Positions 5,016 through 63,024 of a DNA stretch of 64,000 nucleotides are shown piece after piece. The translations under genes were made by a program, and so were the position numbers. Position 1 is the first letter of the stretch. Every line of letters begins with the position of its first letter. This stretch comes from an uncultured Gemmatimonadaceae bacterium (GTDB lineage Bacteria; Gemmatimonadota; Gemmatimonadetes; Gemmatimonadales; Gemmatimonadaceae): positions 384,001 to 448,000 of the forward strand of contig CAWFQK010000001.1 of assembly GCA_963817955.1 (NCBI GenBank). The letters are read 5' to 3'. The notes beneath the pieces are model-generated. The model saw only the letters and a program-made list of their open reading frames with translations, was not told where the DNA came from and did no database searches.

Positions 5016-5552
5016 CTATGGGAGCTTGATCATCGCGGCGGCCCACAGAGGGCCATCGGTATCCTCTTGATACAGCTTGTCGAGATCGACGCTCACACCA
5101 CTCCCGTCGCGCGCGATCGCGAACCGATCCATGTCGCGCGTCGCGCGTCCGCTGCCAGGCACGTACTGACCGGACGCCAGGAACTTCGAGTGATGTTTGG
5201 TGCACTGGAATGCGTGATCGCGATCATCCCATTTGAGCGCGGTGTTCTGGTGCGGACAGGAGAGCGCAAACGCGTACACGGCGTTCTGCCAGCGCACGAG
5301 AATCACTTCGTTATCCCTGTCGATTTGCGCGCCGTCGGCAGCCGGAATGGTGTAGCTGCGCATGCTACCCGACACATGCTTTGCTTCGGTGAAATCGAGC
5401 GGCATGGCGAACGCAGCTGTCTTGCTCATGCCAACTGCGACCATGGCGCCCGCGACACTGAGAAAACTGTCGCGCAAGAAACGGCGGCGGCTGCTCGGCA
5501 GAAGACAGTCACCATGGTCGCAGTCGCCGTGAATATTCGATTCTTCAGACAT
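5016..5552 (-). CDS. Tat-exported Rieske [2Fe-2S] protein
   Basis: SRRRFL twin-arginine signal; CPHQ...CTKH Rieske ligands. Confidence 0.88.
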   Translation of the reverse strand: MSEESNIHGDCDHGDCLLPSSRRRFLRDSFLSVAGAMVAVGMSKTAAFAMPLDFTEAKHVSGSMRSYTIPAADGAQIDRDNEVILVRWQNAVYAFALSCPHQNTALKWDDRDHAFQCTKHHSKFLASGQYVPGSGRATRDMDRFAIARDGSGVSVDLDKLYQEDTDGPLWAAAMIKLP

Positions 5553-5731
5553 CGCGTGCCCTCATCAACGGTATATACCCTCCTTTACCGCTCGGAGTGT
5601 GCCGTCCAGGCCCATATCGCCAAGTCTTTCACTTGTTGAGACTTACGTAAGAGACACCGAAGTCGTTGAGTCCCCCCGTGTCTGTAATAGAGGACGGCCT
5701 CAGTCTATGGAAACAGACGGACACCGCTTCG

Positions 5732-5985
5732 TCAAACTGGGTCCCGCCGTTTTTGGGGGTGGGTGGCCGAGTGCACGTACAGCGACTCGACCTTGGCCCG
5801 CGCCCACGGCGTCTTGCGGAGGAACTTCAGCGATGAGTTGACGCTCGGGTCGTGTGTGAAGCAACGCACCGTGATGCGTTCGCCCAGTCCGTCCCAGCCG
5901 TATCGCTCGACGAGATGCTCGATCATCATCTTGAGCGTGACGCCGTGCAGGGGATCGACCGCCCTGTGCTCGGTCACCGTGGTCA

Positions 5986-5986
<1 letters not shown>
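5732..5986 (-). CDS. VF530/DUF2132 family small DNA-binding protein
   Basis: DPLHGVTL...YGW..LG....[24 protein letters not shown] signature. Confidence 0.9.
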
Positions 5987-7666
<1,680 letters not shown>

Positions 7667-55869: not shown

Positions 55870-56121
55870 ACCCTCTTCCTCCTCCTCGGGTTTTGACGCG
55901 ATTGGCTAAACCATGCACCGCGCATTATGGTGATGATTCATCACGCGCCGATCATCGGTCGATCACACAGCTATGATACTGCGCCTCAACATCTTTATAT
56001 GGACGAGTCCTGATGGGCGGCGGTCACCGTGGCCGTGTGCGCCCATGGACGGATAGTCGGGAGTGGCGGGTGAAGCGATCGAGACGGCGGGTGACAGTGG
56101 TGAGTCGTCGGGATCGAGTCG

Positions 56122-56913
56122 TTAGTCGTCAGTGACTGAGGACCCCGCCGGCCCTCGACGGATTGCCAGCAGGCTACGCGCTGCATCCGCAATCCGGTTC
56201 ACTGCCGCCACCGCGTGCCGCCCTTCCTCTTCGCTGGGGAACGGTCTCGGAGCGAAATCATCTTCCGGATAGCGGGAATCCACGGCAAAGCGACACAGGA
56301 ACACGCAGTCGTCATCCAACCCGTCGAGCGAGTATCCAAGCCGCCAGCACTGCTCGAGCACCGCGTGGACATCGTGCGTCCGCTCCGGGCGCTCCCAGCG
56401 CTGAATGATCAGCGCCTTGAGATACTTCTCGGCGGCTTGCTGGGCGTGGAAGCAGACGGCTGCCCACGGAATGTGCTCGACTGCCAGAGACGCCCGGATA
56501 GTGGTCAGATCTATCTCCGCGTACTCGATCCAGCGCGCCACCGACGCCGGCTCCTTCGGCCGCTCCCGCACATACCGCGACGCACCTACCGCGACGTCGC
56601 TCCGGCGGTACAACTCCTTCCCTTCTCTCGCAATCGCGTAGGCCATGGTGCCCGGATCATCGCGACACGCGTCCAGCTCTTCGGGCGTATAGACGAATAC
56701 GTCCATGTCCCAATCGCGCTGGCTGAAGAGCCGGCGAACGACTTCACGTCGCTCGCGCACGGGCAGCGGCGTCTCCAACTCCACCATGATGTCCGCATCG
56801 CTGTCCGCACGCGCATCGCCGCGGGCGCGGCTGCCGAAGAGCACCACGCGCCGCGGATGCAGGGCGTCTACGATCGTGCAAACGATCTCGTCTATCGGCG
56901 GAGTGCCTCGCAT
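56122..56913 (-). CDS. Fused minimal nucleotidyltransferase + HEPN domain protein
   Basis: N-terminal LFGSRARGD...DSDAD; C-terminal W...A..D, CFHAQQAAEKYLKA, THD and SRYP, all in one frame. Confidence 0.88.
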   Translation of the reverse strand: MRGTPPIDEIVCTIVDALHPRRVVLFGSRARGDARADSDADIMVELETPLPVRERREVVRRLFSQRDWDMDVFVYTPEELDACRDDPGTMAYAIAREGKELYRRSDVAVGASRYVRERPKEPASVARWIEYAEIDLTTIRASLAVEHIPWAAVCFHAQQAAEKYLKALIIQRWERPERTHDVHAVLEQCWRLGYSLDGLDDDCVFLCRFAVDSRYPEDDFAPRPFPSEEEGRHAVAAVNRIADAARSLLAIRRGPAGSSVTDD

Positions 56914-57587
56914 GTGCTTACGATACTGCAAGGCACCCGCCGAGCGCCATCGTTTGGTTTCGGAAGCGGCGATCGTAATAGCACGTGCCACTCTTCGAGG
57001 AGGCACAGATCGATTGGAGCCGCGGCGTGTACCATTGCGTCGATCACTCCCCTGGTGATCTTGGCGTCCCGCAAACCATTGCGAATAGCGGCCGTCGCGA
57101 GGGTGCCACCGGCGATGATCCGGTAGCGGTCGTCGACTGCTTTCTCGAGAGCGTCGATCACATCGCGCAGGCCGCTCGCGGTGTTGGCGCTTACGCCGTG
57201 CTCCTCGAACTCAGCGGTGCGCTCTGTGAGCAAGCCCGCGAGCGCGCGTCCGTGTGTTATGAATTGCTCGATCGACTCCCTCATGGTCGGCGCGACGAAG
57301 CCGGGCAGGGCGCCCGATCGGTGCGCTATGGCACGCGTGACGGCGAAGATGACGCGGAAGTGGCGGTCGAGTATGTGCTGTCGCAATGTTCGGATCACAT
57401 TGGTGATTCCGCGCGCCTCGCTCGCGGCGCGCGCCTGCGTGATGGCCGCCTCTTGGACCGTCTCGATGTGCTCCTTCAAATGCACACGTGCCGGCAGACG
57501 CGCGAAACCGAGCTGTCTTCCGTGACTGTCCATGAATGCGTCGACGCGGAGCAGCATGGCGAGCGCGTGCGCTTCTTTTGTGTTCAT
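56892..57587 (-). CDS. Hypothetical alpha-helical protein, paralog of 57678-58472
   Basis: Shared pattern L..VD.F.D......L, LR..LL..H...I..., F.E.G, ....DA.V and LL.EW. Confidence 0.7.
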   Translation of the reverse strand: MNTKEAHALAMLLRVDAFMDSHGRQLGFARLPARVHLKEHIETVQEAAITQARAASEARGITNVIRTLRQHILDRHFRVIFAVTRAIAHRSGALPGFVAPTMRESIEQFITHGRALAGLLTERTAEFEEHGVSANTASGLRDVIDALEKAVDDRYRIIAGGTLATAAIRNGLRDAKITRGVIDAMVHAAAPIDLCLLEEWHVLLRSPLPKPNDGARRVPCSIVSTCEALRR

Positions 57588-57624
57588 AATATACTCATGG
57601 TGAATGGTTGTGGTGGGCGCAAAC

Positions 57625-57658
57625 GCACACGGCCGCCCGGTGAGGGGCGGCCGTGTGC
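57625..57658 (-). terminator. 14-bp stem hairpin between the paralogs
   Basis: gcacacggccgccc-ggtgag-gggcggccgtgtgc; short T-run on the minus strand. Confidence 0.65.
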
Positions 57659-57677
57659 ATGACTACGTGGGTGTCGC

Positions 57678-58472
57678 TCAGATGGCCGGCGGCGGTGTCG
57701 GAGCCGGTGTTGGGGTTGGAGCCGGTGTTGGCGTTGGAGCCGGTGTTGGCGTTGGAGCCGGTGTTGGCGTTGGAGCCGGTGTTGGCGTTGGAGCCGGTGT
57801 TGGCGTTGGAGCCGGTGTGTCAGGCACGTTTGGTCTCACCGTCGTCGTCGGCGGCTTCTTTACGATGTTCCACTCGTTGAGCAGGTCCTCGTTGTCCTTC
57901 AGGTCGACCTTGACCAGCGCGTCGAGCACGAGGACGGTGCGTCGAGCGGCGACGAGCTGCGATCGGAGACTCTTGGTCGCACCCCCTTTAGCGCCGCGGG
58001 TGGCCGAACGCTGGTCGATAGACGCGATCATGTCGGCCGCGGCCTGCCGAAGGCGGTCGGCGAAGTCTGTCGTCAACCCCGCTTCGATGAACACCGGCGC
58101 GTGCTGTGCCGCCACGTCGGCCATGCCGATGGCCATACTGTTCAACTGTTCCGCCGTCGCGTTCGTGCGCGGCATCTTGAGCGCAGACAGCTCGGGCGTG
58201 TGCGGCAGGTCAGCCGCGGCAATGCGACTGATCGGCGACATGTGGTCCTGCAGCAGCGTCTTGCGCAACGCGTATTGCTTGGCGGTGAGGCCGCGCGCAG
58301 CCTGGGTTCCGCCGGCCTGCGTTCCCGCGTGTCCCTCGAGCTGGACAAGCCTCGCTTTGAGCTTTCCGCGCGACCCCGCCACCGCGGCGACGGGAAGCTT
58401 GTCCGCGTTCGCGTCGATGAAGTCGTCGACGGCGCGGAGGGACTTGATGGTGTTGCCCTGTCTGATTTGCAT
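57678..58472 (-). CDS. Hypothetical alpha-helical protein with Pro/Thr-rich tail
   Basis: GAGG RBS, strong codon bias, (TPAPTP)n C-terminus. Confidence 0.8.
57700..57818. repeat. 18-bp tandem repeat GGAGCCGGTGTTGGCGTT x ~6.6
   Basis: Read directly; encodes the PT tail. Confidence 0.95.
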
Positions 58473-58574
58473 ACTGCCTCTATGAAATAGAGTGGTTGGA
58501 CGCGCATGAATGTGCGGCCGGCGTGCGCGTCCTCACGTCGGCCGGCAATGAACGGGCGGTACTTGGGATTTTCA

Positions 58575-59057
58575 GTAGGGATGACGCACGTGCCTGTCGG
58601 AGCCACGTGTTGGTCTGTCGCGGTCACGCGTCCGGGTGTCGCGGTCACGCGCCTGCTTGACGGCGAGACATGCCATCCGGTCGGGATGAAGCGTCAGCGT
58701 GTCGGAGCGCCGCGTTCACCAGTCGCGGTCACGCGTTCGTTGGTCGGCCTTCGGCGCTCGAATGTTGGAGTCGGACGATCGCTTGTCGGGGTCGGACGAT
58801 TGGCGGTCGGCGTGGCGTGCGTGGCGATCGAGGTGCCGCAACTGACTGTCGCGGTTCAACGTCTGATCGTCGCGATCGGGCGTCTATCGAACGGTGTGAC
58901 GTGTCGCGATGTCGCCGTGTGGCGCGCGGTCGTCGCAGTCACGCGTTCGGATGACGGTGTATTGGACCCGATGGTCGGGGTTGCGTGCAGCGACGTCGTG
59001 GTTCGGCGTTCGGCTGACGAGGTCGCGTGCTCGGCTGACGGCGCCGGCGAGTGGGTA
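58575..59057. repeat. Degenerate 21-bp tandem array, 23 units
   Basis: The + frame parses exactly into 23 heptads V-[GA]-V-x-R-x-x; consensus GTCGSNGTNNNNCGN7. Confidence 0.8.
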
Positions 59058-59114
59058 CATCGAGCGACGACGACGGGCACGGATCGCGGTCATCCGTGAG
59101 GCATGAAACGACAA

Positions 59115-59202
59115 AGGATCTCTTCGACTTGAAAGAGATCCTTCGCTTTGCTCAGGATGACAACGGGTGGCTCAGAATGACAACGGGTGGCTCAGAATGA
59201 CA
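59115..59202. repeat. Hairpin plus REP-like unit and 20-bp tandem CTCAG[GA]ATGACAACGGGTGG
   Basis: aaggatctctt...aagagatcctt inverted pair followed by three ctcag(g/a)atgacaa units. Confidence 0.8.
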
Positions 59203-59379
59203 AGCTCGATCCGTAGTTGGCGAGTTCATGCCCCTATATATTAGTTCCGAATTTGGGGGGTCGGCGCAAGAGGCAATTTTTGCCGGGGGCCAAAATTGGT
59301 CATTTTGTCCGTTTAGTCGTCGACGTCATCGCGGCAGCGGGGGCGGGGGCGGGGGCGGGGTTACGGGACGTGAGCACAC

Positions 59380-60114
59380 CTATCGCCAAGGCTCGCAATT
59401 CACCGTAGCCGAAAGGTCGAATCCCTTCATGCGCACGTGCTTCCCCGCCTGACCACCCAGAAACCCACCGCGAAAGGTGATCGTGGCCGCGGCGGCGTCA
59501 TAGATGTACGCGCCGCCGCGCTTGCCATCGAGGTCGTCGTACGTTCCCCCGGTCTTGAGGCGAAAGCCCATTCCTGCCATCAGCTTGGTGTGCACGCCGT
59601 AGCACGCGTATTCGCCGATGTAGAGACTTCCCTGCTCCTTCACAGCAGGCGTCGTGGGCTGAGCGCCGACGGGCGCTGCTCGCGGTGCCGCCTCACCGGC
59701 CAGGCCAGCCACTGGCATGGAGCTCACGCCTTCGGAAGGGTTGTTCTTGCAGACGGCATCGCTGACCGTCATGCGACCTTGGACGATCCACTTGCCGAAG
59801 TCATCCTTTAATGCGTCGAACTTCCACTTGTCCATTTTGCCGACGCAGGTCTGCCCGTAGTAATGATTACTGGGGTAACCCGGGCCGTAATCGTGGATGA
59901 TTGCCGTGACCTGGAATGGATAATATCCGCCATTCGGTTTCCCCGGCTGCACGTCCTGAAAGAGCACCGTGCGCACGGTTGTTCCGGCTGGCTTGAGCTT
60001 CTGCAAATGCGCCTCGAGCAGCTGCGTGAACTGTGCTGCGGACGGCTGTGCGGCAGCCGTTGATGCCATCAGCGCCAATGAGACGAGCGCGATGCCGAGC
60101 CGGGGGGTACGCAT
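59380..60114 (-). CDS. Hypothetical secreted two-domain protein
   Basis: Signal peptide ending AAA-Q, four Cys, beta-rich C-terminal domain (GEYAC...GGTY...G.Y.YD). Confidence 0.72.
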   Translation of the reverse strand: MRTPRLGIALVSLALMASTAAAQPSAAQFTQLLEAHLQKLKPAGTTVRTVLFQDVQPGKPNGGYYPFQVTAIIHDYGPGYPSNHYYGQTCVGKMDKWKFDALKDDFGKWIVQGRMTVSDAVCKNNPSEGVSSMPVAGLAGEAAPRAAPVGAQPTTPAVKEQGSLYIGEYACYGVHTKLMAGMGFRLKTGGTYDDLDGKRGGAYIYDAAAATITFRGGFLGGQAGKHVRMKGFDLSATVNCEPWR

Positions 60115-60313
60115 TTGCTGACCGGAGAGAGGGGTACGGGACACGAGTAGTAGCTTGGCGCCGCGCGGGAGGGAAGTGATGACGGCAAACCTGGGTAGAA
60201 GCTGACGTGCTAGGTAACAGCTAAAACTCCGGCAATTGGTAATTATTCAGTAGTTCCTACATGCAGGTGTGCGCCTTGGACTAGGCAAAGTTAAATTGAA
60301 CTGAAGTAAGAAC

Positions 60314-60362
60314 TTGCGATGTTTTAGTAGGAATTGTAGTTTTAGTTAGAAACTAAAACTAC
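60314..60362 (+). promoter_or_regulatory. Promoter TTGCGA-N17-TAGTTT overlapped by a perfect 12-bp inverted repeat (putative AbiEi operator)
   Basis: gtagttttagtt-aga-aactaaaactac at 60336-60362 in an AT-rich stretch. Confidence 0.75.
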
Positions 60363-60374
60363 TGGATTTGATAA

Positions 60375-61547
60375 ATGAACCCTCGCCGACGAGCCCCGGA
60401 GAACCACGATCAACTGACGGCTGCCCTGCTGGGTTTCTGGCGTGACGAACTCGGTCTATCGGTTACGCGCGAGTTGGGCGCATCCCGCGAGACGGATCGA
60501 GACGAGTTTGACGAAGTCATTTCCTTGCACCTCGATGATCGAGTCTGGCGCCTATACATCGATTGGCAATCCCGCGCGCCATCCGCCCTCGACTTGCACC
60601 ACTTAGAGGCCCGCGCTATCCGGCTCTCAAAAGCGGACACGAGCGGCGTGCTGTGCCTCGCCGTACCACGCCTACTCAAGCGGCATCATGCGGCACTACG
60701 CGAATCCGGTATTAGCCACGCAGATCTGCGCAGCATCCTGTACTTGCGTGCGCCAGGGTTGCTTGTTGACATAGAACGTCTGCGAGACTCGACCGATCGG
60801 GCGGCGGCGTCCATGGACTCATCCCCCGTGACTCCCGTTGATCCGTTCTCGGATCGCACGAGTCTCGTCGCGCGCACCTTACTGGAGTACCCGCGAGAGT
60901 CATTCAAAGTCATCGACCTCGCAAAGCTCACCGGCGTCAGCGCTGGCTGGGTCTCGATCGTTTCCAACGAGCTCTGCCGCCGAGGGTACGCCGCCAAGTC
61001 CGCCCGCGAACTTCAACTCGCTGATGCGGTCCGCCTCCTCCAGGACTGGTCACGCGTCTACACCTGGCGACGAAACCCCGTTCAACGCTTCGAGGTGCCA
61101 TACTCTGCGGAGGAGATCCTCCGAAAGTTCCGGCTTCATCAGGCTGACAAACCCAGTTCCGAGTCCGGCCAGGCCGCCCTGACGCTACACTCGGCGGCTC
61201 AACTTGTCTCACCACACGTTCGCAGTGACGTTGTAGCGCTGTATGCCGAGCGTCCCGCGCATAAACGACTGCTCGAATGGCTTGCGACAGACTTGCAAGC
61301 GCAGCCGACAACAGCTGGCGGCGGTTTCCAGGTCGTCACTCCGTTCTACGAGCACTCCGCGTTCTACCAGGTCAAGTCTATCAGTGGCCTGCCGGTCGTT
61401 TCGCTTCCGCAGCTGTTTCTCGATTTGGTGCACTACCCGATACGCGGCCAAGAAGCAGCCTCGATGCTCGTACGCACAGCTCTCGGCGACCATCTCGACC
61501 TCTCGCCCGCCGATCGGCAACGGCTAACGCGAGAAATCGAGCAATGA
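60375..61547 (+). CDS. Type IV TA antitoxin, AbiEi_2-like transcriptional regulator
   Basis: Central HTH (DLAKLTGVSAGWVS), LL.DW, ALTL.SAA and C-terminal PVVS.PQLFLDL...P.RG.EAA. Confidence 0.8.
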   Translation: MNPRRRAPENHDQLTAALLGFWRDELGLSVTRELGASRETDRDEFDEVISLHLDDRVWRLYIDWQSRAPSALDLHHLEARAIRLSKADTSGVLCLAVPRLLKRHHAALRESGISHADLRSILYLRAPGLLVDIERLRDSTDRAAASMDSSPVTPVDPFSDRTSLVARTLLEYPRESFKVIDLAKLTGVSAGWVSIVSNELCRRGYAAKSARELQLADAVRLLQDWSRVYTWRRNPVQRFEVPYSAEEILRKFRLHQADKPSSESGQAALTLHSAAQLVSPHVRSDVVALYAERPAHKRLLEWLATDLQAQPTTAGGGFQVVTPFYEHSAFYQVKSISGLPVVSLPQLFLDLVHYPIRGQEAASMLVRTALGDHLDLSPADRQRLTREIEQ

Positions 61548-61778: not shown

Positions 61779-62671
61779 TTACGCTGCTATTGCGGGTTCT
61801 CTCATGCGTGTCTGCCGCAGCTCAAACGCGGCGGGACTCAGGTAGCCCAGGCTCGAGTGCCGCCGTTGTTGATTATACCACACCTCGATGTACTCGAACA
61901 CCGCCGTCCTTGCCTCGTCGCGTGTCGCCCAATCGGCGTCATCCGCCAGCTCGCGCTTGAGCGTCGCAAAGAAGCTTTCCGCGACCGCATTATCCCAGCA
62001 GTTCCCCACCCGACTCATGCTGCAGGTCATCGCGTGAGCCGTGAGGATATCCTGATAGTCGCCAGCCGCGTATTGACTCCCCCGGTCGGAATGGTACAGC
62101 GTGCCCGGCTTGGGCTGACGCCCCGCCAACGCCATCAGCAGCGCGTCCCGGGTGAGCGCGCCCTCCAAGGTGTGCCGCATCGCCCACCCGATCACTCGGC
62201 GCGACGCGAGATCGAGCACGATCGCCAAGTACAGCCAGCCTTCGCGCGTCGACAGATACGTAATGTCGCCGACCCACACGCGATCGAGCGCGGCCCCGTC
62301 CGCCACGGCGAACTGCCGATCGAGCACGTTGGGCGCGATCGGATGTGCATGCCTGGAATCCGTCGTCCCGCGGAAGCGCCGCGGCGTCTTGGCGCGGAGC
62401 CCTTCCTCCTGCATGAGGCGCGCGACCCGCTTCGCGCCGTGCGCTGCCCCTGTGCTTTGAGCTCGGCGTGCACGCGCGGACTGCCATACCGCTGGCGGCT
62501 CTTGGCATGAATGACCGTGATCGCCTCGGCGAGCTGGGCGTCGTCCTCGGCGTGCCGACTCGGTGGCCGGCTGACCCATGCATAGTAGCTGGCCTTCTTC
62601 ACCTGCAACACGCGACACATGGTCGTCACGTGGAACTCGGGCGTGTGGACCGCGATGAACGCGAATCTCAT
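61779..62671 (-). CDS. IS3 OrfB DDE transposase, frameshifted near 62440
   Basis: YGSPR in one frame; KRVARLM, WVGDITY, HSDRGSQY, DNAVAESFF..LK and YN..R.HSSLGY.SP in the next. Confidence 0.9.
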
Positions 62672-63024
62672 CGCCCGCTCTTGGCGAAGAAGGCCGTCGC
62701 TTTTCCCAAGATGTCACGCTCCTCGCGCAACACCGCGTTCTCGCGCCGCAACTGGCGAATCTCCTCGTCCTGGCTCGTCAACTTTCCGTTTCCCGGGAAG
62801 ATGTCGGCCGGCCGGTGGCCCGCCCGCGCTTCCACCTGGCGCGTCCACTGGCGGAGCATTTCGGGACGAATGCCCAAATCGCGCGCGACTGCACTCACCC
62901 GCCGATCGCCGACGGCAGCGAGGCGCACGGCCTCAAGCTTGAAGTCTTGGGTGAACTGCCGACGGGATTGCGGCGGTTGACTCCCGACCTGTTGTGGCTG
63001 CTGCTTGGTTCGTTTTGCCCTCAT
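62668..63024 (-). CDS. IS3 OrfA (HTH + leucine zipper)
   Basis: RRQFTQDFKLEAV, VARDLGI, EIRQLRREN..LREERDIL.KA..FFAK; its stop overlaps the OrfB ATG. Confidence 0.92.
   Translation of the reverse strand: MRAKRTKQQPQQVGSQPPQSRRQFTQDFKLEAVRLAAVGDRRVSAVARDLGIRPEMLRQWTRQVEARAGHRPADIFPGNGKLTSQDEEIRQLRRENAVLREERDILGKATAFFAKSGR

Follow-up and report, generated by a model that had tools for sequence, protein, structure and literature searches.

Iterons with their Rep initiators and ParR-parC sites place direct repeats about two helical turns apart beside the gene of the protein that binds them, an arrangement that goes with autoregulation, and TRAP on the trp leader and CsrA with CsrB are systems in which repeat-bearing RNAs are bound by protein oligomers. 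Here we analyze a 64,000-nucleotide (nt) stretch of DNA from an uncultured Gemmatimonadaceae bacterium (hereafter the window; positions 384,001 to 448,000 of contig CAWFQK010000001.1), in which an array of 21-bp units lies just upstream of a gene for a basic helical protein. Closest to this array are the bacterial tandem repeats of constant size (20–21 or 52 nt), variable in sequence and mostly non-coding, described by Subirana and Messeguer (PMC8161180). Their paper reports such repeats from many bacterial groups, with a short conserved sequence inside each repeat, several sequence families per genome and an unexplained function, for which either a polymerizing protein that needs a constant repeat size or small RNAs were proposed.

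The window array has the fixed 20–21-nt length of those repeats (equal to two turns of DNA), is likewise non-coding, and belongs to a genome that also holds several sequence families (18 unit types here) with a conserved core in each unit. The units are often far more degenerate here than in those repeats, and whereas that paper names no neighbouring gene, the arrays studied here go with one protein family and a defined cassette. An initial sequence-only reading of the window had considered the locus a candidate for an undescribed system; this does not stand for the repeat class itself, which is already in print, but we found no paper, in the literature on PQLLE proteins (see below) or on such repeats, that links constant-size arrays to a protein. 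The association of array and gene, both within this genome and across species, is strongly supported. As to what the association means, we favor, at a probability of roughly 0.4, the interpretation that the array is a lattice of sites taking up one protein per two DNA turns, that this protein is likely the one encoded just downstream, and that it would exert feedback on its own production by way of the leader. Such a lattice is suggested by array-length changes in whole units only, an oriented core, the pairing with the gene, a basic helical protein, purifying selection and co-variation in the leader, and a polymerizing protein that depends on repeat size was proposed independently in PMC8161180. 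The elements of the locus are as follows, in window coordinates.

56892–57587, minus strand: paralog A, 231 aa, basic, all-helical and PQLLE-like (family hidden Markov model (HMM) E-value 6.5e-69; isoelectric point (pI) of the core 9.41)
57626–57657, minus strand: hairpin with a 13-bp stem after the stop codon of paralog B, resembling the terminator hairpin of other cassettes
57678–58472, minus strand: paralog B, 264 aa, a helical-bundle core of ~210 aa (core pI 9.86) followed by a (TPAPTP)n tail
58477–58481, minus strand: ribosome-binding-site sequence AGAGG of paralog B
58498–58543, minus strand: leader element, a hairpin (58516–58543) whose loop AGGACGCG pairs with 58498–58507
58506–59099, plus strand: open frame of 197 aa that spans the array on the strand opposite to the genes, judged not to be a gene
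58575–59057, minus strand: the 21-bp array, 23 non-coding units of exactly 21 bp
59150–59203, minus strand: 20-bp tandem repeat of 2.7 copies between head and array, with one unit fewer in the copy on contig C6 (see below)
59231–59284, minus strand: head of the cassette, an A-tract, CCTCTTGCGCC and then the 19-mer TTCGGAACTAATATATAGG (59233–59251)

The sequence-only reading had set out 23 indel-free units of 21 bp lying about 100 bp upstream of the helical genes, and both points were borne out. Unit length is constant across the 23 units, with zero insertions or deletions (indels), and the array matches itself at lag 21 with an identity of 0.539, compared with a mean of 0.278 (sd 0.039, maximum 0.37) over all lags other than 21 and its multiples; across 500 shuffles, the highest identity at any lag stayed at or below 0.371. 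The distance from the end of the array to the start codon of the 264-aa gene is 102 nt. Ten columns of the unit are strongly conserved, namely, on the plus strand, G1 (21 of 23 units), T2 (18), C3 (21), G4 (23), G7 and T8 (19 each), G12 (18), C13 (15), G14 (19) and G18 (18); the remaining columns vary freely, and the mean pairwise identity of units is 0.51. The conserved core reads GTCG..GT...GCG...G on the plus strand, which is ...AC..CGAC on the gene strand (gene-sense consensus annCnnnCgCgnnACccCGAC), and it is oriented, with 18 matches to [CG]CGAC on the gene strand versus one on the opposite strand. At lag 105, identity is 0.505, with no drop over distance, and this flat profile implies that the units resemble one another through fixed conserved columns and not through recent duplication of neighbours. 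Because the units are only ~51% alike, Tandem Repeats Finder missed most of the array and called just a two-copy piece (58770–58810).

A second, near-identical copy of the window array and its upstream region lies on contig C6 and has 24 units, one more than here. The C1 and C6 copies of the array thus differ by 21 bp, that is, by whole units only, and the arrays of the type-I cassettes of this genome also differ among themselves by whole units (42 and 21 nt). The C6 copy (L010, G000 C6:84000–96000, ~5270–6420) abuts an open reading frame (ORF) of 1180 aa and carries a piece, with a 204-bp internal deletion, of the 254-aa gene that neighbours the window array (59380–60144, minus strand), which identifies the duplication as a decayed segmental copy beside the 1180-aa ORF. 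Across the genome, 42 well-conserved blocks fall into 18 distinct unit types, all of which keep the period of 21.

Pairing of arrays with the helical gene was assessed by scanning the entire assembly (4.53 Mb in 9 contigs) for lag identity, which returned 65 segments of period 21 or 42, merged into 44 loci that total 27.9 kb. Searching the same genome with the 264-aa protein (tblastn) gave 22 places, or 20 loci, and an array adjoins 18 of these 20; the array lies on the 5′ side of the gene in 17 of the 18, the exception being one that overlaps the gene's 3′ end. By the family HMM, a family ORF lies within 2.5 kb of 20 of the 44 arrays, many of these ORFs being fragments. The family is also present, often in many copies, in 17 of 30 other genomes of the genus and in five of 30 genomes outside the genus within the order. 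Autocorrelation of homolog flanks at period 21, named as a check in the sequence-only reading, compared the 900 nt upstream of 20 family genes from three other genomes of the genus (G020, G005 and G017) with equal-sized downstream control regions: a lag-21/42 identity of at least 0.45 was reached upstream of 13 of the 20 genes versus one of 20 controls, and 21 or 42 was the top lag in 16 upstream regions versus seven controls. The unit sequences are entirely different from locus to locus across species. At the ortholog of the window gene (L013, in G006), the motif YNGAAC occurs 17 times on the gene strand versus twice on the opposite strand, and 12 of its 16 spacings measure 20–21 nt. A table of 26 gene-array pairs, in which the N-terminus of the protein was compared with the array core for co-variation, was noisy, and the pairs are co-inherited. 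Of the proposed phased array acting with the adjacent proteins, the association holds within the genome and across species, and the binding itself is inferred.

The two window proteins are diverged paralogs (25% identity over 208 residues, E 2e-15) separated by a hairpin, both as originally read. Their tandem arrangement holds for this locus and is not general, since each of the 31 family loci examined in other genomes carries a single family gene. AlphaFold2 models paralog B with a mean predicted local distance difference test (pLDDT) score of 89.4 as an elongated helical bundle, with helices at residues 33–88 and 137–190 and a disordered Pro/Thr/Ala tail. The tail corresponds to 6.6 copies of an 18-bp repeat at 99% identity (57700–57818, found by Tandem Repeats Finder); tails of family members vary widely in length and sequence. 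The core of the family is basic: 17 of the 19 members have a pI of 9.4 or higher. When 1.84 billion representatives were searched with a profile, matches numbered 4,728 at E ≤ 0.001 and 833 at E ≤ 1e-30, thousands of relatives of the family occur in metagenomes, and the matches in the ESM Atlas were unnamed clusters only.

Neither paralog matches a Pfam, NCBIfam or PHROGs family at cut-off, and no sequence match was found in PDB (best profile E 0.66). Against NCBIfam PQLLE_fam (NF052641), the window proteins give no match at E ≤ 1, and six of 19 family members give weak matches (best 23.8 bits, E 3e-5, the curated cut-off being 80 bits) that are colinear with the profile at a constant offset (for example, protein residues 39–198 on profile positions 47–206 of ~211); above the cut-off, NF052641 is matched in none of 201 genomes of the phylum. 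Two bridging proteins from another family of the same order (P0210 and P0211) match both the family HMM (E 2.5e-24 and 1e-22) and PQLLE_fam (E 5.1e-9 and 9.9e-7), and 21-bp units lie upstream of both their genes. The family has a DPALLxxW block with invariant L197 and W201 (DPQLLGSW in P0211), and a C-terminal P-x-L-L-x-x-W motif is present, as defined from the PQLLE family name and not from a curated entry. We treat the window proteins as a divergent branch that is probably related to PQLLE_fam, that is, as remote relatives and not as members.

The plus-strand frame over the array, confirmed as open for 197 aa, raises the alternative that the array encodes a heptad-repeat protein, with V-[GA]-V-x-R-x-x heptads on the plus strand here and, for type-I arrays, L-x-x-L-x-x-x heptads on the strand facing the gene's own. 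The frame is indeed open over the entire array, 21 of the 44 arrays of the genome lie in a stop-free frame, and the type-I arrays read, opposite the gene, as ~50 near-perfect leucine heptads without a stop (L023:4324–5673, minus strand; L025:5514–6839, plus strand). Furthermore, five of the eight differences between the two copies of the window ORF are synonymous in the plus frame and three non-synonymous, although eight are too few to inform and one antisense frame gives the same split. For this reason, we calculated ratios of non-synonymous to synonymous divergence (pN/pS) on paralogous type-I cassettes, where the arrays gave 0.76–1.31 and 0.89–1.06 over all six frames, as opposed to 0.25 and 0.19 for the adjacent helical gene in its own frame. 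The helical gene is under purifying selection, and the pN/pS of ~1 in the arrays makes the leucine heptads a by-product of the DNA repeat. In the window array, columns 3, 12 and 18, all conserved, fall at third positions of codons in the plus frame, while codons 4, 6 and 7 vary at first and second positions, the reverse of coding constraint. In 23 of the 44 arrays, none of the six frames is free of stops, and the open frames of the others are about as long as the array and end with it, with the exception of locus 36 on C5, where the array lies inside a 2-kb open frame. The 197-aa product has no Pfam, NCBIfam or PHROGs match, and AlphaFold2 gave it a mean pLDDT of 32 from single-sequence input (a weak test). 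The array is non-coding, and a heptad protein is an extremely improbable explanation; the suggestion of conservation at the nucleotide rather than the amino-acid level was upheld, and the coding option offered beside it was not. The coiled-coil-like heptads of type-I arrays are ones that automatic annotation could easily call a gene.

Between the array and paralog B lies the leader element, whose GC-rich hairpin (a 10-bp stem with one A.C mismatch) exposes a loop complementary to a segment just 5′ of the ribosome-binding site, and this pairing may form either a pseudoknot or an alternative structure. Hairpins with loop-to-downstream pairing were found in 12 of 39 family leaders, compared with a mean of 0.5 of 39 (maximum 2) in 20 shuffled sets, by a strict search whose 12 hits do not include the window's own mismatched hairpin. 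Loop and downstream partner differ between leaders and co-vary, giving five different pairs (GGACGCG/CGCGTCC, GGGCGCC/GGCGCCC, GGATGCG/CGCATCC, GGACGC/GCGTCC and GGCGTGC/GCACGCC). A U-run follows the hairpin in orthologs L012 and L013 and in several paralogs, and other subfamilies have different paired leaders. The interval from array to hairpin offers no visible space for a promoter, and the array may be transcribed from the head.

These leaders bear on a second alternative, namely that the array works purely as RNA: a long repeat leader or repeat RNA, rich in C and with little structure, would be produced from the head and serve in Rho loading, in attenuation, or as a scaffold or sponge for another factor, with the hairpin as a terminator and the protein as the regulated cargo. 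The base composition fits, in that the gene strand of the window array is C-rich (C 0.40, G 0.27, T 0.12) and C exceeds G on the gene strand here and in 12 of 13 arrays of other species, as does the folding of that strand, which is no better than that of shuffles (z +1.16). The terminator-like hairpins with U-runs and the RNA-type co-varying pairing, both between array and ribosome-binding site, point in the same direction, as does the lack of visible promoter space there, and the 52-nt repeats of Bacillus coagulans are reported to be transcribed (PMC8625621). On the other hand, G-C skew is nearly absent from this genome's type-I arrays, no Rfam family was matched, the CsrA-type GGA motif is not enriched in several arrays, and an exact two-turn period has no obvious meaning for single-stranded RNA. 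We regard a purely RNA-level role as rather unlikely.

A structured RNA, one of the options of the sequence-only reading, found no support for the array, the short structured leader element being a separate matter. Minimum-free-energy folding against dinucleotide shuffles gave z-scores from −4.5 to +1.2 across arrays with no consistent strand, Rfam returned nothing at E ≤ 1 for window positions 56000–61000, and at three cassette loci it returned one chance miRNA match (27.8 bits versus a gathering score of 100). A CsrA sponge of the CsrB/RsmZ type was rejected: the genome encodes CsrA, but GGA occurs 0.12 times per 21 nt on the gene strand of the window array and 0–0.2 times in four others, compared with a background of 0.33. 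The cassette resembles TRAP and CsrA-CsrB targets in that a short core recurs at a constant interval in a leader or RNA, ahead of a terminator-like hairpin; it differs from them in its cores, in their spacing, in its lack of GGA enrichment and in encoding no TRAP-like or CsrA-like protein.

The cassette as a whole measures ~2 kb and runs, in order, from the head through the array (0.3–1.4 kb), the leader hairpin, the ribosome-binding site and the helical gene to a terminator hairpin. The 19-mer of the head has 20 copies in the genome (14 exact), each of which marks the outer end of an array and lies within a conserved head of ~130 nt, and heads related to that of the window are present in orthologs and in other species. 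The head looks like a promoter and is a candidate for one. Homology among type-I cassettes extends over ~2.07 kb with sharp borders: it begins ~110 nt before the 19-mer and ends at a strong hairpin ~80 nt past the stop codon. The flanking genes are unrelated housekeeping genes (MFS transporter, DUF4153, PTS EIIA, aldo-keto reductase and others; 28 neighbouring proteins scanned over 10 loci, with eight cassette loci annotated). Identical internal deletion end points are common to three cassette copies, and some pairs also share their downstream flank, so that larger segmental duplication contributes to the copying. One cassette (C4:913464–914652, array and gene) is flanked by genes for an S9 peptidase and a DUF520 protein. 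The closest homolog of this peptidase (73–76% identity) is found in six relatives from the genus, and in all six the same site is empty, with the two genes adjacent (gaps of −13 to 63 bp by coordinates; junction sequence seen for five), which indicates that ~1.65 kb were gained in this genome. The cassette is thus a gained and copied unit. It contains no transposase and has spread without any recognizable one.

Several heads are immediately preceded by runs of a 7-bp repeat, with the unit GGGACAC or, in the C4:914 cassette, its near reverse complement GTGTCTC. The places are the G000 C4:1542975 region, C4:1408215, C5:102063, C8:40772 and oriented positions 560–625 of L059; the lag scan also showed many separate period-7 loci in the genome.

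A copied cassette invites a third alternative, a selfish or neutral minisatellite whose period is inherited through unit-wise slippage and gene conversion and does not reflect function. The sharp homology borders amid unrelated neighbours, the site that is empty in six relatives and the internal deletion common to three copies would all be expected of it; arrays have also diverged by 21%, faster than synonymous sites of the gene (pS 0.105), and many array-adjacent family genes are fragments. Slippage would, however, allow indels of 1–2 bp, and none is found in 23 units that are only ~51% alike, whose similarity, by not decaying with distance, points to conserved columns and not to recent duplication. 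The period is, moreover, kept across 18 unrelated unit sequences and across species and, according to PMC8161180, across phyla. Neutral inheritance of the period seems to us an unlikely account of the array, if somewhat less so than the one considered next.

In that account, the repeats would serve a replicon or partition system as iterons or as a centromere-like array, with the helical protein as initiator or adaptor. Two-turn direct repeats upstream of the gene of their own binder are typical of iterons and type II partition sites, and the cassette shares with these the adjoining protein gene. It differs in lacking a Rep protein, a partition NTPase and any replicon context, in its far longer arrays and in its protein fold. 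The 44 loci are scattered over the chromosome among housekeeping genes, and the cassette holds no Rep, ParA/ParM or ParB family. A Rep-type initiator was not found beside the repeats, where neither protein has a Pfam or NCBIfam family and the neighbours are housekeeping genes; likewise, no partition NTPase with a ribbon-helix-helix adaptor was found beside the eight annotated cassette loci, and the cassette itself has a single all-helical protein. A tblastn search of 72,556 plasmid records with the protein was also empty, as was a search of genome contigs for related loci with the single protein. A replicon or partition function is very unlikely.

The lattice interpretation, which we prefer, would work as follows. 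Each 21-bp unit would provide a single oriented core of short length (in this array ...AC..CGAC, read along the gene strand), and an exact spacing of two DNA turns between units would let one protein line up on the array in many adjacent copies. The simplest candidate for that protein is the basic helical product of the gene immediately downstream, whose predicted helices of 54–56 residues would, by our estimate, be roughly as long as 21 bp of B-DNA. It may read either the array DNA or the C-rich leader RNA. Since the array in this lineage lies between head and gene, its occupation would affect how the leader is transcribed, by roadblock or hairpin attenuation, and would thereby feed back on the protein's own synthesis.

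Several results weigh against this interpretation. Within the genome, 24 of the 44 arrays have no recognizable family gene nearby, the C6 copy of the window array retains the first 22 nt of the family gene and no more, and paralog A has no array of its own. In other species, seven of the 20 family genes lack a detectable array. Palindromes of at least 6 bp, as expected of dimer sites, are not enriched (nine of 18 unit types versus ~5 expected), and dimer-site palindromes were rejected on that count. A scan of 56700–59500, head included, gave no sigma-70 consensus site, so that the position given here to the promoter relative to the array is putative. As for the protein, Foldseek found nothing at E ≤ 0.001 in PDB or BFVD, the best VIA Z of 9.9 falls inside the generic helical-bundle range, and the predicted fold thus matches no known DNA- or RNA-binding protein in the PDB, BFVD and VIA searches.

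In a broader form, which we consider possible but on balance doubtful, bacterial constant-length repeats would in general be the binding lattices of one very large, basic, helical-bundle family (PQLLE-like). Array and protein would then make up a copyable cassette, a satellite with its own satellite-binding protein, which would polymerize at one protomer per two turns, control itself through the leader and, in genomes like this one with its 44 arrays, aid chromosome organization. This genome offers an unusually rich natural experiment, in which dozens of arrays share a period, differ in sequence and each go with a family paralog. If the protein binds its array, a phased nucleoprotein or leader-control module of a new kind would be defined, and a family of several thousand members would gain its first function.

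The genome also holds repeat arrays of other periods. Two very long ones (C9:136993–140124, 3.1 kb; C9:142666–147198, 4.5 kb) have a period of 60/120 at an identity of 0.65–0.72, and period-17 arrays cluster at C1:214882–222276 and C4:1146367–1159230 (three loci each; lag identity 0.51–0.61). An array of period 83/41 (C4:1120280–1122006, identity 0.84) lies within a type-I cassette locus, and one of period 90 is found at C2:629142–630679 (0.85).

Around the window cassette, the genes are of mobile or defence type (56122–57006, minus strand; 60375–61547, plus strand; 61779–63024, minus strand). They encode a protein in which a nucleotidyltransferase is fused to HEPN (Pfam E 6.6e-11 and 1.2e-20) and a regulator that is AbiEi-like (E 4.8e-07); two further ORFs of 312 and 118 aa, both on the minus strand, overlap each other and by eye resemble an insertion-sequence transposase.

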